From a virus (lineage: Duplodnaviria > Heunggongvirae > Uroviricota > Caudoviricetes): DNA of 7,115 nucleotides. Positions 312 through 7,115 of the stretch are shown one piece after another; position 1 is the stretch's first letter; the number at the start of each line of letters is the position of its first letter. The notes under the pieces were generated by a model. It was not told where the DNA came from. It saw only the letters and a program-made list of their open reading frames with translations, and did no database searches. The translations under genes were made by a program, and so were the position numbers. The stretch lies in IMG/VR virus record IMGVR_UViG_2728369593_000018. One strand, written 5' to 3'.

Positions 312-443
312 AGGCTATAAACCGACTAACAACTAAATACTGAAGATTTAAATCAGAAACGATTTTTATTAAATCCTTAACCGGAGGGATTCCTGCACCC
401 TCAAATCATCAGGAGGCCGCCCGAAAGGGCGGTGGAGATAATA

Positions 444-644
444 ATGGGAATAACTAAAGAACGATTGTTGGAAATAGCAAACCTTAGTGATTGGGCATTA
501 AGTGATGAGAGAATTGTTTCTCCTCATGCTTATGAGTCAGTTACAAGTATAGAAATAACAACAATGGCTAGAATGCTGCTTGGTTATTTCAAAATAGAAA
601 ATAAAAACAGATGGATAGTAATGTTGATATATGTGAGATTTTAG
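444..644 (+). CDS. small hypothetical protein (66 aa)
   Basis: ATG at 444 preceded by GGAG at 435-438; the ORF overlaps the start of the downstream Q-like gene by 34 nt. AT-rich, no recognisable motif, and analogous in position to small ORFs upstream of Q in DLP12-type phages. Confidence 0.3.
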   Translation: MGITKERLLEIANLSDWALSDERIVSPHAYESVTSIEITTMARMLLGYFKIENKNRWIVMLIYVRF

Positions 645-964
645 ACGATTGGGGGGCTTGGGTTGTGGCTGGTAATAGTTCTATTGATTGGCAGGAAATA
701 GCTGATAAATATAAAAATGTTGTTCCTCATGGTAAAAAATCACGTCGTCAGTGCAGCAATGATGAAGGGCGAATTATTGACATTAGTATCCTTAGGTTAG
801 AAAGATATAAGCAACAAGAATATGAGTTAATTGTTGCTCATTTCGTGATTGGTTTATCTCTTCGTGCTATTGCAAAGCAACAAGGATGTTCAGATGGAAC
901 AATTCGTAAAAGATTGCAAAAAGCCTTAGGTTTTTTGACTGGATATATAGCAATTACCAGTTAA
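611..964 (+). CDS. Q-family late-gene antiterminator homologue (QuuD / DLP12-type small Q), 117 aa
   Basis: The translation shares the motifs I recall from E. coli QuuD (127 aa): WGAW near the N-terminus, SRRQCSNDE against SRPQCCDDD, and LIVAHFVIGLSLRAIAKQQGCSDGTIRKRLQKALG against [35 protein letters not shown]. The gene is AT-rich like the surrounding cassette. Confidence 0.6.
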   Translation: MDSNVDICEILDDWGAWVVAGNSSIDWQEIADKYKNVVPHGKKSRRQCSNDEGRIIDISILRLERYKQQEYELIVAHFVIGLSLRAIAKQQGCSDGTIRKRLQKALGFLTGYIAITS

Positions 965-1602
965 GAGTCAGCGGTTTTTTTACCAGTGTAATGGTATAAG
1001 GATACTCCCATGTGTCTTACATGATATGGAAGCGCTGTTGCTGGATGCTTTGTGATACTCTTAAAGCGGAGGGGAGAGCCTTCCGCTTCAATTTCTGCGT
1101 CCGAAACGGTCGTAGAGAAAAATTCTTTCCATTCATTGAATTTTACTGCTGATTTGTCAGACTTTATATAAATTAGAATTCCTCCATGATCGTCACGTGA
1201 CGTACCCGTGCCGTAACGTTCGGTTAGCTGAATCCAGCCATTATGAATAGATTTGGGGCCTCTCCATAATTTTGCTTCACCGATCCATTCGAATTTTCCG
1301 AATTGATGTTTAACTAATAAATCAACGTGACCGCCATGTTGAGTATCATGTTCAACATCATAAAACCTACCTTTCAGGAAATTTTTGATCGACGCTGTTA
1401 GCTCGTCCTCTCCCCACTTAGCATCTTGATAGAAGTGTTTGTCATTTTCTAAATTCTGAATAGCGTCGTCTAAATCTTCATAGAGTTGCTTTACAAAAAT
1501 ATTTTTGTCTGCAGCTAATTTTCTTTGAACCATTCCCCTAAATTCAGGATCCATTCTAATTAATGATTGAAGGTCTGCAGTACAGATGTTTACATCACTC
1601 AT
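961..1602 (-). CDS. hypothetical protein, 213 aa; candidate PD-(D/E)xK-fold nuclease
   Basis: Long ORF in AT-rich DNA. Start chosen at the internal ATG (complement of 1600-1602), which follows GGAGAG on the minus strand. Protein segment ...YDVEHDTQHGGHVDLLVKHQFGKFEWIGEAKLW... has a hydrophobic strand ending in D followed about 15 residues later by E-x-K, the classic restriction-endonuclease-fold arrangement. Its stop overlaps the stop of the convergent Q-like gene (TTAA at 961-964). Confidence 0.6.
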   Translation of the reverse strand: MSDVNICTADLQSLIRMDPEFRGMVQRKLAADKNIFVKQLYEDLDDAIQNLENDKHFYQDAKWGEDELTASIKNFLKGRFYDVEHDTQHGGHVDLLVKHQFGKFEWIGEAKLWRGPKSIHNGWIQLTERYGTGTSRDDHGGILIYIKSDKSAVKFNEWKEFFSTTVSDAEIEAEGSPLRFKSITKHPATALPYHVRHMGVSLYHYTGKKTADS

Positions 1603-1815: not shown

Positions 1816-2025
1816 TCAAGTTGCTTTTATTAGCAGGATATAGTCATCTTTCGTATCAGTTAGATAGGTTAAACCATTGATAAGGGTTTTGTATGTAAAG
1901 TGATTGATATTTTTAGCATCTTTACTAACCAGAAAAAGAAAAAGATCACGACACACACTGCGAACAGGATCATTAAAATCCTGCTCTATTTGCGTGATAA
2001 TGTCGTGATATATACTCTTTTTCAT
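1816..2025 (-). CDS. hypothetical small protein (69 aa), possibly a remnant of a decayed gene
   Basis: ORF on the same strand as the flanking cassette genes. Its ATG overlaps the TGA of an upstream 40-codon ORF in ATGA fashion, and the RBS is weak (AGG). No recognisable motif. Confidence 0.3.
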   Translation of the reverse strand: MKKSIYHDIITQIEQDFNDPVRSVCRDLFLFLVSKDAKNINHFTYKTLINGLTYLTDTKDDYILLIKAT

Positions 2026-2334
2026 TTATGGCCTGATGATCTCGCTCTTCTTTTCTCTTCACAGGACTTAACAGAATCCAATATTTTTTCAACAATAAAT
2101 ATAATCGAATCAATGTTGTTACAGTTCTTCGCTAATTGCTTCATGCAACCTAATTCTAGGATTATCAAGCATTGTCCTTTTTCCTGGTATATTAACTCTA
2201 CTGATAAAATATGTGAAGAACTTTGTGGTAAATCCCAAATTTTTCCAACTTAAACTTTGTCAATATTGGGCTTGCGGACTCTCCACTATGATGGTAAACA
2301 TCTTGACGCAAACACTTTTGACTTGGTTTGAGTT

Positions 2335-3111
2335 TTAAAGAACTTGTATTGCCATCTGAGGTGATAAAAGATACATGAGAAATTCTGCCATCACTTTTTC
2401 GTAAAGATCTTGTATTGAACCAAATAATTCAAGAGGATTGTTTAAAATAACGCCAGCTTCTTTTTTTATAAATTTAGCCACAAGGTATTGTTGAGGCTGT
2501 GATTCACTTCTTGGAAGGATAGATAAATCAATCGTAAGAATTAATATTTTTTCTGCAGGCATTAGCATGATGGTATTAAAGCATTGCGTGACTTGGCGTG
2601 TTTTGCATTTTATTTCTCCACCATTAGCACGTAATTCCATACCCACATCGCTAAGATGTGTTGGGTCAAGCTCTATCACTTCAGTGTAATACGCTTTGGA
2701 TAAAAAAACAGCAGTGTCAATTTGTTTATCACGAATGATATCTTGACATAGTTCAGCAAAATGCAGCTCAGTATCAGCAACTAACAGCTCCTCTCTGGAT
2801 AAAGGAATTGGGTATTTTTCTGAGAAGGGGCTATTGTCCTTTTTCTGATTTGTGAAAATTGTTTGTAATTTTGCTACGTCTTCATCGGTGATTCTATAAA
2901 TAGAAAGTAATCGATTCCCGCTAAAAATTAAACCTTTCCAGAAATCGTCGATTCTGTCTTTTAGGTCGGGATTATGCTGAACTACACTATTTACACGTTC
3001 AATAAAAAGGGGTAATCCTTGGGCCGTTACACCCAGTGATGAACCAAGAAGCTTACGGGTGTTGCGCCAGCCAAAGCGTGAATTGATGTTTTTTACTGTT
3101 TGCTCAAGCAT
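2335..3111 (-). CDS. hypothetical protein, 258 aa, no family recognised
   Basis: Long ORF in AT-rich DNA. ATG at complement of 3109-3111 is preceded by AAGGA with 7-nt spacing on the minus strand; the track's 3117 start is an in-frame GTG two codons upstream. Leading gene of the minus-strand cassette. Confidence 0.7.
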   Translation of the reverse strand: MLEQTVKNINSRFGWRNTRKLLGSSLGVTAQGLPLFIERVNSVVQHNPDLKDRIDDFWKGLIFSGNRLLSIYRITDEDVAKLQTIFTNQKKDNSPFSEKYPIPLSREELLVADTELHFAELCQDIIRDKQIDTAVFLSKAYYTEVIELDPTHLSDVGMELRANGGEIKCKTRQVTQCFNTIMLMPAEKILILTIDLSILPRSESQPQQYLVAKFIKKEAGVILNNPLELFGSIQDLYEKVMAEFLMYLLSPQMAIQVL

Positions 3112-3164: not shown

Positions 3165-3193
3165 AGTTTACATAAAAAAATGTGCGTACGCAA
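3165..3193 (-). promoter_or_regulatory. candidate sigma70 promoter for the 258-aa gene, overlapped by a perfect 10-bp palindrome TGCGTACGCA (putative operator)
   Basis: On the minus strand: TTGCGT, 17-nt spacer, TAAACT, about 45 nt upstream of the ATG. The palindrome at 3183-3192 overlaps the -35 element and extends as an imperfect inverted repeat. Confidence 0.3.
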
Positions 3194-3282: not shown

Positions 3283-3459
3283 GACTGCGGGTGCTTGAGG
3301 TCTATCTGTCTCAGGCATGAACACCAAAAGGCAGATAGAGAAAAGCCCCAGTTAACATTACGCGTCGGCAAGACGACTTAACATTAATCTGAGGCCATAT
3401 CTATGCTCTACACACGTAGGTTAGCCTCTTACGTGCCGAAAGGCAAGGAGAAGCAGGCT

Positions 3460-3615
3460 ATGAAGCAGCAAAAGGCGATGTTAATCGCCCTGATCGTCAT
3501 CTGTTTAACCGTCATAATGACGGCACTGGTAACGAGGAAAGACCTCTGCGAGGTACGAATCCGAACCGGCCAGACGGAGGTCGCTGTCTTCACAGCTTAC
3601 GAACCTGAGGAGTAA
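3460..3615 (+). CDS. hokD: Hok/Gef-family type I toxin (HokD/RelF-like), 51 aa
   Basis: Translation MKQQKAMLIALIVICLTVIMTALVTRKDLCEVRIRTGQTEVAVFTAYEPEE is essentially the K-12 HokD sequence as I recall it (one conservative difference). AGGAG lies 9 nt upstream of the ATG and a rho-independent terminator follows. Confidence 0.9.
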   Translation: MKQQKAMLIALIVICLTVIMTALVTRKDLCEVRIRTGQTEVAVFTAYEPEE

Positions 3616-5123: not shown

Positions 5124-5483
5124 ATGCTCATAGATTTGGTTTTACCTTACCCGCCGACGGTGAACACTTACTGGCGACGCCGTGGCAGCACATATTTTGT
5201 ATCAAAAGTCGGTGAGCGTTATCGCCGTGATGTGGCGCTTATTGTTCGCCAGCAGCAACTGAAATTAAACCTGTCCGGAAGGCCGGCAATAGAAATTATT
5301 GCAGAGCCACCGGATAAGCGCCGTCGTGACCTGGACAATATCCTGAAGGCACCACTGGATGTACTGACGCATGCGGGGCTGCTCATAGACGACGAGCAGT
5401 TTGATGAAATTAATATTGTGCGCGGTCAGCTTGTTCCTGGTGGGCGGTTGGGGATAAAAATCACAGAACTGGAGTATGCATGA
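5124..5483 (+). CDS. rusA: RusA-family Holliday junction resolvase
   Basis: 119-aa ORF with AGAGG RBS; LPYPPTVNTYWRRRG and PDKRRRDLDNILKAPLDVL match the RusA signature as recalled (PDRRRRDLDNLQKA in E. coli RusA). Its stop overlaps the next ATG (ATGA). Confidence 0.9.
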   Translation: MLIDLVLPYPPTVNTYWRRRGSTYFVSKVGERYRRDVALIVRQQQLKLNLSGRPAIEIIAEPPDKRRRDLDNILKAPLDVLTHAGLLIDDEQFDEINIVRGQLVPGGRLGIKITELEYA

Positions 5484-6169
5484 ATAACCAGTATTTACAG
5501 TTTGTTCGTGAGCAACTCATGATTGCCACCGCCGATTTGAGTGGATCAACAAAAGGGCAGCTTGAGGCCTGGCAGGAGAATGCCATGTTTGATACAGGGC
5601 GTTACAGGCGTAAAAAAATCCGGTACCGCGATGAAGTGACTGGAAAAATGATAACGCGGGATAATCCACCAATCCCGGGAAAGCAATCGCTGGCGAAGGG
5701 GGCGTCAATTCCTCTCGTCAGTCCGGTTGAGTTTTTGACATCATCGTGGCGGCGGGCTGTTCTGTCTCTTGAAGAACATCATAAAGCCTGGTTGTTGTGG
5801 TGTTACAGCGGGAGTATTTGTTGGGAATATCAGATCGCGATAACACAGTGGGCGTGGAATGAATTTAATACTCAATCCGGTACCAGAAAAATTGCTGGGA
5901 AAACGCAGGAACGCCTGAAAAAATTAATCTGGCTGGCGGCGCAGGCAGTAAAAGCAGAACTTTTTGGTGGGGAAGGTTATGAATATCAGGAGCTGGCATT
6001 ACTGGCGGGAGTGACAACTAAAAACTGGTCCAAAACATTTACTCGTCACTGGGTTGCAATGAAACACATTTTTCACCGACTGGATAGTGAGGCTTTATTA
6101 TTTGTAATGAGAACACGTTCAAAACAAAAGGCGGCATTTTCAAAGCAAAGTGTTGCAAAAGTAGATTGA
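5480..6169 (+). CDS. putative late-gene antiterminator Q (large, phage-82 / QuuQ-like type), 229 aa
   Basis: Position immediately after rusA and immediately before a promoter, short leader, terminator and tRNA cluster, as for Q in Stx phages and in Qin (ydfU then quuQ). GGAG lies 5 nt upstream of the ATG. The call rests on synteny and size; the sequence is not recognised from memory. Confidence 0.5.
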   Translation: MNNQYLQFVREQLMIATADLSGSTKGQLEAWQENAMFDTGRYRRKKIRYRDEVTGKMITRDNPPIPGKQSLAKGASIPLVSPVEFLTSSWRRAVLSLEEHHKAWLLWCYSGSICWEYQIAITQWAWNEFNTQSGTRKIAGKTQERLKKLIWLAAQAVKAELFGGEGYEYQELALLAGVTTKNWSKTFTRHWVAMKHIFHRLDSEALLFVMRTRSKQKAAFSKQSVAKVD

Positions 6170-6356: not shown

Positions 6357-6366
6357 CCTGCGCCCG

Positions 6367-6441
6367 GCCCTTTAGCTCAGTGGTGAGAGCGAGCGACTCA
6401 TAATCGCCAGGTCGCTGGTTCAAATCCAGCAAGGGCCACCA
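6367..6441 (+). tRNA. ileZ: tRNA-Ile2-like (anticodon CAU; ileZ/ileX-type), with a 6-nt T-loop
   Basis: Perfect acceptor stem GGCCCTT / AAGGGCC, D-arm GCTC-AGTGGTGA-GAGC, anticodon loop CTCATAA, encoded CCA. Closely resembles E. coli ileX as recalled, except the T-loop reads TCAAAT (6 nt) where ileX has TTCAAGT. Confidence 0.8.
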
Positions 6442-6442
6442 A

Positions 6443-6518
6443 CCGCCACTAGCCATCAGGAAAGAGCGTCAACCCTTTAAGTTGAGTGTGCGAGGTTCGA
6501 GTCCCCGGTGGTGGTCCA
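6443..6518 (+). tRNA. tRNA-like sequence in the argN position; degenerate D-stem and unusual anticodon loop CCTTTAA (possible pseudo-tRNA)
   Basis: Acceptor stem CCGCCAC / GTGGTGG (one G-U), T-arm CGAGG-TTCGAGT-CCCCG (one mismatch), anticodon stem TCAAC / GTTGA, encoded CCA. The D-stem pairs only 2 of 4 positions and position 33 is C rather than the near-universal U; anticodon would read UUU. Confidence 0.45.
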
Positions 6519-6533
6519 TTATCGGTATTTCTG

Positions 6534-6607
6534 CGTTGTTAGCTCAGCAGGACAGAGCAATTGCCTTCTAAGCAATCGGTCACTGGTTCGACTCCAGTAC
6601 AACGCGC
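6534..6607 (+). tRNA. argO: tRNA-Arg (anticodon UCU; argO/argU-type)
   Basis: Perfect acceptor stem GCGTTGT / ACAACGC, D-arm GCTC-AGCAGGACA-GAGC, anticodon loop CTTCTAA, T-arm ACTGG-TTCGACT-CCAGT. The 3' CCA is not encoded. Confidence 0.85.
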
Positions 6608-6648: not shown

Positions 6649-6736
6649 AAATGTCTCACAATTCAGACGGTTGACAGTTGTCTGTTTTGCGGGGAGTTTG
6701 TTAAAAGAAACTGGCATGGTGAATCCCCCTGTGCGG

Positions 6737-6755
6737 CTGTCTCTTATACACAAAT
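6737..6755 (+). repeat. IS50-like terminal inverted repeat (left end)
   Basis: CTGTCTCTTATACACAAAT compared with the 19-bp Tn5 end sequences; immediately followed by a 9-bp stem hairpin CAAATCCCC-ACCC-GGGGATTTG. Confidence 0.7.
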
Positions 6756-6901
6756 CCCCACCCGGGGATTTGTGATGTCTGTCAGTCTGCTTTAGGGGGA
6801 CTCTTTCCATCCGGTAGTTTCCTTCCTCCCCGGCAGCGATTTTTTGAACTTTTTCCTCACCCGTTGATCTTCTCTTATATTTCATTTTCTTCGGGTCTGT
6901 T

Positions 6902-7115
6902 ATGGTACTTTCTGATTGTTATTCATGGGCTAACGAGCAGTTTGGACATGCCCGTCTCGGTGATCCGCGTCGTACACGACGCCTTGTGTCACTGGCCTCT
7001 TCTCTCGCTCAGCATGCAGGTCTTTCTATTGTGAAATCATCCCAGTCCCTGCTCAGGTTGAAGGTGCGTACCGCCTGATACGTAACCCGTCTGTGTCCCC
7101 GCAAGCCATTGCCGA
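6902..7115 (+). pseudogene. IS50-like transposase N-terminal region with an apparent single-base frameshift (3' partial)
   Basis: Frame A gives MVLSDCYSWANEQFGHARLGDPRRTRRLVSLASSLAQHAGLSIVKSSQS, matching Tn5 Tnp ...DWAKSVFSSAALGDPRRTARLVNVAAQLAKYSGKSITISS..., then hits TGA at 7076-7078. The homology continues in another frame as PAQVEGAYRLIRNPSVSPQAIA, matching Tn5 ...EAMQEGAYRFIRNPNVSAEAI. The shift maps to the C-run near 7046-7050. Confidence 0.6.

Follow-up and report, generated by a model that had tools for sequence, protein, structure and literature searches.

Among described systems, type II restriction enzymes have a methyltransferase partner, McrBC a GTPase partner, and Hachiman a helicase partner, and NLR-like/STAND immune proteins join a NACHT or NB-ARC domain to repeats that act as sensors and to a nuclease effector, which is N-terminal in the majority of Avs/bNACHT proteins described so far. 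The RexAB exclusion system of phage lambda includes RexA, an RdgC-fold DNA-binding sensor (PMC11077077). The locus described here lies in a 7,115-nucleotide stretch of viral DNA (Caudoviricetes; IMG/VR record IMGVR_UViG_2728369593_000018), hereafter the window, which is 99.7% identical to a Rac-like/lambdoid prophage beside ompW in enteropathogenic Escherichia coli (EPEC) E2348/69 (NC_011601.1). Three genes on its minus strand, designated A, B, and C, form a cassette in which the predicted nuclease C has neither a methyltransferase nor a GTPase or helicase partner and is accompanied by A and B instead. With moderate confidence, and with predicted models behind every structural statement, we propose that C is the metal-dependent PD-(D/E)xK nuclease effector of a mobile three-gene defence-type module, with A as a DNA-binding subunit and B as an adaptor or inhibitor. 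Each of the alternatives considered below is weaker than this reading.

Gene C and its predicted active site

Gene C is intact in the window (minus strand, 961–1602; ATG at 1602–1600, TAA at 963–961) and encodes a 213-amino-acid protein. A preliminary description of this DNA had reported this reading frame and, within the peptide FYDVEHDTQHGGHVDLLVKHQFGKFEWIGEAKLW, an Asp followed about 15 residues later by Glu-Ala-Lys. Both proved correct, with the peptide corresponding to residues 80–113 and D94 (1323–1321) preceding E109-A110-K111 (1278–1270) at an Asp-to-Glu spacing of 15 residues. As evidence, the bare motif is uninformative: D-x(10-30)-[DE]-x-K occurred in 91% of 5000 shuffles of C and is not above chance. 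The evidence for a nuclease thus rests on conservation and fold.

Conservation was assessed in 151 representatives, consisting of the window protein and its 150 best profile-search matches, and in a separate set of 32 homologues. E65, G91, D94, E109, K111, Q125, and Y130 were invariant in all 151 of these diverged representatives and in the 32 homologues, and A110 and R129 were kept in 141 and 147 of the 151, respectively. The acidic residues of YDVEHD, previously put forward as the upstream acids of the motif, did not hold up in this role, as D82 was variable (49/151) and D86 was partially conserved (D in 103 and E in 22 of 151). The conserved upstream acid is E65 (codon 1408–1410; 151/151), which lies in GEDELT, where the helix preceding the sheet begins.

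An AlphaFold2 model of C, built from the 32-sequence alignment, had a predicted local distance difference test score (pLDDT) of 91.8 and a predicted template modelling score of 0.88. It comprises an N-terminal helical region (residues ~8–58) and a core (65–201) made up of helix 65–78, strands 82–88, 91–98, and 105–112, helix 116–130, strand 139–146, and further elements beyond. This is the alpha-beta-beta-beta-alpha-beta core for which the preliminary description had suggested looking by structure prediction, and the invariant residues fall on its canonical elements: E65 on the first core helix, D94 (in GGHVD; 1321–1323) on the second core strand, and E109-A110-K111 (1270–1278), the (D/E)-x-K element, on the third. 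Together, the predicted fold and the complete conservation of E65, D94, E109, and K111 back the earlier assignment to PD-(D/E)xK-like proteins, and C is very probably a nuclease of the restriction-endonuclease fold whose active site is intact. E65, D94, E109, and K111 are its predicted catalytic residues. Q125 and Y130 are further invariant positions, located in a Q...RY element (Q125-L-T-E-R-Y130; 1213–1230) on the helix that follows the third strand.

The predicted model is structurally nearest to the BamHI/BglII/OkrAI/BstYI group, followed by McrC and by HamA of Hachiman. C has no detectable sequence relationship to any of these proteins and differs from them in its extra N-terminal helical region and in the invariant Q-x4-Y helix motif. 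An orphan type II restriction endonuclease of the BamHI/BglII structural class, cutting a specific sequence in a host protected by other means, would fit the structural ranking and is nevertheless, in our estimation, very unlikely. The earlier remark that no methyltransferase is nearby was borne out both in the window and within ~12 kb on either side in E2348/69. Furthermore, no methyltransferase adjoined the cassette in any locus examined, the only such genes being phage Dam/D12-class genes ~2.5 kb away in three Salmonella prophage loci. A classical restriction-modification system had also been doubted, and this doubt is upheld, given that C lacks an adjacent methyltransferase and is always the third gene of a conserved cassette on mobile elements.

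Searches of Pfam, NCBIfam, and PDB sequences returned no match to C, and its profile placed it in no curated PD-(D/E)xK family. C does match PHROG 9664, annotated as "unknown function," and its residues 88–150, containing the D...ExK core, weakly match positions 295–353 of 410 in the PADLOC candidate PDC-S54 (E = 0.0016). The score is marginal, only the catalytic core aligns, and the PDC-S54 model is about twice the length of C. Matches of the C profile to Rab GTPases (E ~0.006) cover the C-terminal strands only and were judged spurious. A word-indexed search recovered 45 homologue clusters, all of ~200–240 amino acids, and searching a profile exhaustively against 1.84 billion representatives gave 986 matches at E ≤ 1e-3 (counted as clusters at 50% identity), including 371 at E ≤ 1e-30.

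The start codon of C at 1602 overlaps the stop codon of the upstream gene B (ATGAGTGA). A Shine-Dalgarno-like GGAGAG, read from the sequence, lies within the 3' end of B (minus strand, 1608–1613), its GGAG (1613–1610) being 7 nucleotides upstream of the ATG. The RefSeq call is for a 197-amino-acid protein beginning at an internal Met at 1554. The 213-amino-acid protein is preferred because the Shine-Dalgarno sequence, the overlap with the B stop codon, and the start position shared by the homologues all agree on 1602.

The A-B-C cassette, its carriers, and fused relatives

In E2348/69, the reference for the intact cassette (NC_011601.1, 1437328–1439825 with the upstream region), A (363 amino acids), B (142 amino acids), and C overlap head to tail, with ATGA at the A/B junction and ATGAGTGA at the B/C junction. 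Judging from these overlapping start and stop codons and from its own Shine-Dalgarno sequence, C is translationally coupled to the upstream genes. In total, 58 related loci were gathered from viral contigs, phage and plasmid records, genomes, and metagenomes, and their open reading frames were screened with A, B, and C profiles. Wherever the sequence extended 1.6 kb or more upstream of C (54 loci), A-B-C were present in the same order and on the same strand. Contig ends truncate the remaining four loci, and A is split in two loci. The 54 loci include many near-identical copies and represent approximately 16 sequence lineages, with C identity ranging down to ~30%. These lineages include E. coli, Salmonella, Enterobacter, Shewanella, Alteromonadaceae, a metagenome-assembled genome of Burkholderiales, a Moraxella phage, Stx1a phages, and a plasmid of the cyanobacterium Calothrix. 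A genome scan with a closer subset of sequences found only 4 loci, and the cassette is present in 14 of 5426 complete E. coli genomes. Its G+C content is 33–39%, compared with 50–55% in the flanks.

In E. coli and Salmonella lambdoid prophages, some of which have differing packaging modules, the cassette is flanked by the Q antiterminator gene on one side and the holin gene on the other. In Stx1a-converting phages, it lies between Q and stx1AB, directly upstream of the toxin genes and on the opposite strand; the copy there is diverged, with C ~32% identical, and was found in seven Stx1a-converting phage genomes, among them that of Stx1_499 (L016; LC567825.1, 13614–15721). In both groups, the cassette and Q are convergent, and the cassette runs antisense to the late genes. 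In lambdoid phages, this position and orientation are classical for cargo expressed by the lysogen. Outside prophages, the immediate neighbours of the cassette include AbiLi (E = 1e-102), the reverse transcriptase DRT2 (E = 3e-160), a type IV restriction-like HNH protein, and a TnsB-like transposase.

This distribution bears on the possibility that the cassette is an accessory to phage recombination or replication, in which A would modulate RecA or recombination in the manner of RdgC and C would be a structure-specific nuclease for phage DNA metabolism, similar to the neighbouring RusA and DUF968/NinG-type genes. Resolvases and exonucleases of recombination are found among the PD-(D/E)xK nucleases, A has the predicted fold of a recombination-associated protein (see below), and the window cassette sits in a nin-like region near RusA and DUF968. 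We nonetheless regard such a role as improbable, because the cassette is transcribed opposite to the surrounding early and late phage genes, has an atypical G+C content, is sporadic among otherwise similar lambdoid phages, and also occurs outside phages, on plasmids and beside AbiL and DRT2. The fusion of the C domain to NACHT-HEAT proteins is a further point against this role.

These fusions were found in 8 of the 150 best representatives (P0173, P0187, P0191, P0197, P0198, P0199, P0201, and P0293), which are proteins of 712–1226 amino acids with the C domain, from approximately profile position 19–31 to its end, at the C terminus. An N-terminal NACHT or NB-ARC NTPase is followed by HEAT or TPR repeats and then by the C domain, the named examples coming from the cyanobacteria Oscillatoria and Fischerella. 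Two longer matches lack the NTPase: P0179 (369 amino acids) has HEAT repeats only, and P0174 (300 amino acids) has no Pfam match. By its domain order, the fusion layout is that of a STAND/NLR-type conflict protein in which the C domain serves as a swappable output module. The C domain is thus the terminal domain of some NLR-like/STAND proteins, with the nuclease at the end opposite to that usual in Avs/bNACHT proteins. The window protein differs from them in having no NTPase or repeat domain and in having A and B as separate partners; in Pfam searches, a NACHT/NB-ARC domain was absent from window C, A, and B and present only in the fused relatives. The suggestion that C could be an effector nuclease is supported by the conserved mobile cassette and by the occurrence of the same domain at the C terminus of these NACHT/NB-ARC proteins.

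Partner proteins A and B

Gene A (minus strand, 2022–3111) encodes a basic protein of 363 amino acids (pI 8.8) whose predicted fold resembles that of RdgC, and the stop codon of the gene overlaps the start codon of B (ATGA). Two methods ranked RdgC as the best match of the A model, Foldseek giving no other significant one, and the model shows the three-domain fold of RdgC. By sequence, nine diverse A proteins had no match in Pfam, including PF04381, and neither A nor B yielded a usable match in Pfam, NCBIfam, PADLOC, or the PDB sequences. A exceeds E. coli RdgC (PDB 2OWL), a dimeric DNA-binding ring associated with recombination, by 60 residues, differs from it in domain arrangement, as reflected in a root-mean-square deviation (rmsd) of 6.5 Å and a low template modelling (TM) score, and shows no sequence similarity to it. 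The two genes also differ in context, with E. coli rdgC being a chromosomal housekeeping gene and A a mobile-element gene in an operon with a nuclease.

The structural matches also bear on a signalling system in which A would be an enzyme, such as a triphosphate-tunnel or cyclase-like protein, making a small molecule that activates C. We find this the hardest of the alternatives to credit, given that RdgC was clearly the best match to A and that no cyclase family matched A by sequence. In addition, domain searches and the model revealed no recognisable ligand-sensor domain in C such as SAVED or CARF. A is instead a possible DNA-binding sensor or loader subunit, as its predicted fold suggests. 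The most conserved stretch of A (residues ~241–294; window ~2230–2390) reads DGR...CLRxDxYHxxGxxA...LGKxWD, with R269, H274, and G277 invariant, and may serve in catalysis or as a loop that binds DNA or a partner. Within it, residues 271–284 form the main low-confidence segment of the model (pLDDT < 50).

Gene B (minus strand, 1595–2025) encodes an acidic protein (pI 4.7) of 142 amino acids in the intact reference (open reading frame at 12696–13124 of L001). Across loci, B is 126–153 amino acids long and always lies between A and C. A small, acidic protein encoded directly upstream of C and translationally coupled to it is what might be expected of an antitoxin, and the cassette could be a toxin-antitoxin or addiction module, with C as a toxin that cuts DNA and B and/or A keeping it inactive. 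Such a cassette would mainly stabilise the carrier prophage or plasmid, with any phage defence a secondary effect. Such a role would overlap with abortive infection. Carriage on plasmids and prophages is compatible with this possibility, as is the hok/sok addiction locus beside the window cassette. However, a simple two-gene toxin-antitoxin system has no need of the third, larger gene A found in 54/54 loci. The fusion of C relatives to NACHT sensor proteins, typical of triggered immune effectors, and the defence genes found as cassette neighbours also argue against an addiction module, which we therefore judge unlikely.

For the proposed defence module, the following sequence of events can be envisaged. 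The A-B-C cassette moves between prophages, plasmids, and genomic islands and, in lysogens, would be expressed from the prophage. Its most likely role would be defence against phages or other mobile elements, with C as the DNA-cutting effector. A, being basic and predicted to have the DNA-encircling fold of RdgC, would bind DNA and report an infection-specific DNA state, and B, small and acidic, would couple or restrain A and C.

The nearest parallel for such a mechanism is lambda RexAB. Similar to RexAB, the cassette is found on lambdoid prophages and is transcribed independently of the lytic genes, and A falls, by its predicted model, into the RdgC/RexA/Iml3/Chl4 class of DNA-binding folds. 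The comparison suggests an analogous logic of a DNA-state sensor joined to an effector. In contrast to RexAB, whose second component RexB is a membrane protein, the partners of A are a soluble nuclease and a small acidic protein; the highest 19-residue hydropathy averages, 0.66 for B and 0.16 for C, are too low for a membrane helix, and the cassette has no membrane partner of the RexAB type. Additionally, A matches RdgC itself, RexA is not among the structural matches listed, and A has no sequence similarity to RexA. A more specific form of the defence reading is a Rex-like sensor with a nuclease output, in which A would be an RdgC-fold DNA clamp that detects invading or replicating phage DNA and, via B, licenses C, in a system spread by lambdoid prophages, including Stx1a prophages, and sharing its effector domain with cyanobacterial NACHT-HEAT proteins. 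We put this form forward only tentatively.

The prophage copy and its significance

Relative to E2348/69, the window contains 15 single-base insertions or deletions (indels) and 5 substitutions in the main 6.7-kb alignment and one more of each in the insertion sequence (IS) segment. The indels, at positions including 603, 1701, 1818, 2133, 2189, 2245, 2393, 3181, 3210, 3268, 3301, 3366, 3377, 6339, 6528, and 7049, are spread across genes and spacers and also affect the tRNA region, and homopolymers hold only some of them. None falls within gene C (961–1602). Two 1-bp insertions (~1701 and ~1818) break the frame of gene B, four 1-bp indels (~2133, 2189, 2245, and 2393) break that of gene A after residue ~240, and the first Q gene is also frameshifted. 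Because indels fall in B and A, the window yields open reading frame fragments of 69 and 260 amino acids in place of the 142- and 363-amino-acid reference products. Their pattern resembles uncorrected long-read consensus or assembly error and not decay, and the frameshifts in A and B are probably sequencing errors. However, gene A is likewise split in two IMG/VR loci (L029 and L042).

Several points nevertheless weigh against the defence-module reading. If the frameshifts in A and B are real, the module is decaying and this copy is possibly defective. The link of A to RdgC is one of fold only, drawn from a predicted model with a global TM score of 0.30–0.35 and an rmsd of 6.5 Å, and hhalign comparison of the A alignment with E. 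coli RdgC and with lambda RexA gave a probability of 0.3% for each. B has no family or fold assignable in sequence searches. No known defence-system model in PADLOC-DB v2.0.0 matches A or B (none at E ≤ 1), and C matches only PDC-S54, and that weakly. A scan of the minus strand with the sigma-70 consensus found no clear promoter upstream of A, and counts of promoter and terminator matches were at shuffle level. Lastly, the A, B, and C proteins were not mentioned in the literature searched by accession, PHROG, and PDC identifiers, including the accessions in the DefensePredictor and Rousset supplements, a search whose scope did not extend to current DefenseFinder models or to Brenes & Laub 2025.

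Identity with a P2-hotspot system designated "HP+HP+HP" and described as "three genes with no predicted domain" (Rousset et al. 2022) was considered. Within the part of that source consulted, the two are probably different, as its HHpred hints (Cap4_SAVED and Ish1) are unlike those of the cassette. One P2-hotspot protein from Table S2A of the same source, assumed to be a member of that system although its membership is unconfirmed, showed no similarity to the cassette.

The window runs from an antiterminator-Q-family gene (plus strand) through A, B, and C (minus strand), sok/hokD, a small open reading frame, DUF968, RusA, a second Q gene, and tRNA genes to the end of an IS4-like element. The first Q gene (432–964, plus strand; Pfam PF06530, E = 3e-32), whose frame is broken near 603 in the window, is intact in E2348/69, where it encodes 177 amino acids. 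It is convergent with C, overlaps the 3' end of C by 4 nucleotides, and has a G+C content of 34.5%, low like that of the cassette. Q adjoins the cassette likewise in further enterobacterial lambdoid prophage loci (L002–L005, L016, and L021–L023), which include those of E. coli, Salmonella, and Stx1a prophages, and Q and A-B-C may move as a single block. The prophage in the window has two Q genes, at 432–964 and 5480–6169.

On the other side, directly upstream of the 5' end of the cassette and on the opposite strand, lies a complete type I toxin-antitoxin locus of the hok/sok type (3289–3615), with an Rfam sok score of 108.9 bits at 3289–3465 and a HokD-like reading frame consisting of a mok-like leader starting at 3403 and a Hok core from ~3460 to 3615. 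A perfect 10-bp palindrome, TGCGTACGCA, occurs at 3183–3192, ~70 nucleotides upstream of the start of gene A. TGCGTACGCA may be an operator, although the consensus scan detected no promoter. In other lineages, the corresponding segment (TTTTTGCGGACCG...) shows partial conservation only, and the regions upstream of A align poorly between lineages. Farther downstream in the window, ARAGORN called three tRNA genes (6366–6607) with anticodons CAT, TTT (Lys), and TCT (Arg). Of these, only the first (CAT) and third (TCT) are backed by Rfam and by the E2348/69 annotation in RefSeq, and the middle tRNA-Lys call (6443–6518) may be degenerate or spurious. The right end of the window (6736–7115) matches the interior of the transposase gene of the IS4-like element ISEc13 in inverted orientation; in E2348/69, the prophage is interrupted by ISEc13, with the tRNA genes on one side of it and the lysis module on the other.

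In sum, the cassette is a good candidate for a new anti-phage system. As far as sequence comparison reaches, Pfam, NCBIfam, PADLOC v2, and the literature searched contain none of the three protein families, to which the nuclease, A, and B belong, and not their combination; the fold and general logic of a mobile operon with a nuclease effector are familiar. If this is confirmed, the known bacterial immune systems would gain a nuclease family and a three-gene architecture, both of them new. Its candidate sensor, A, is predicted to have the RdgC/RexA DNA-binding fold, which has been linked to phage exclusion only via the poorly understood lambda Rex system, and the NACHT-HEAT fusions provide a separate route to understanding effector control. 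The cassette is carried by prophages of pathogenic E. coli, including EPEC E2348/69 and Stx1a phages beside stx1, and of Salmonella. Its carriage by prophages of these pathogens could therefore influence which phages, including therapeutic ones, grow on such strains, as well as competition among toxin-converting phages.
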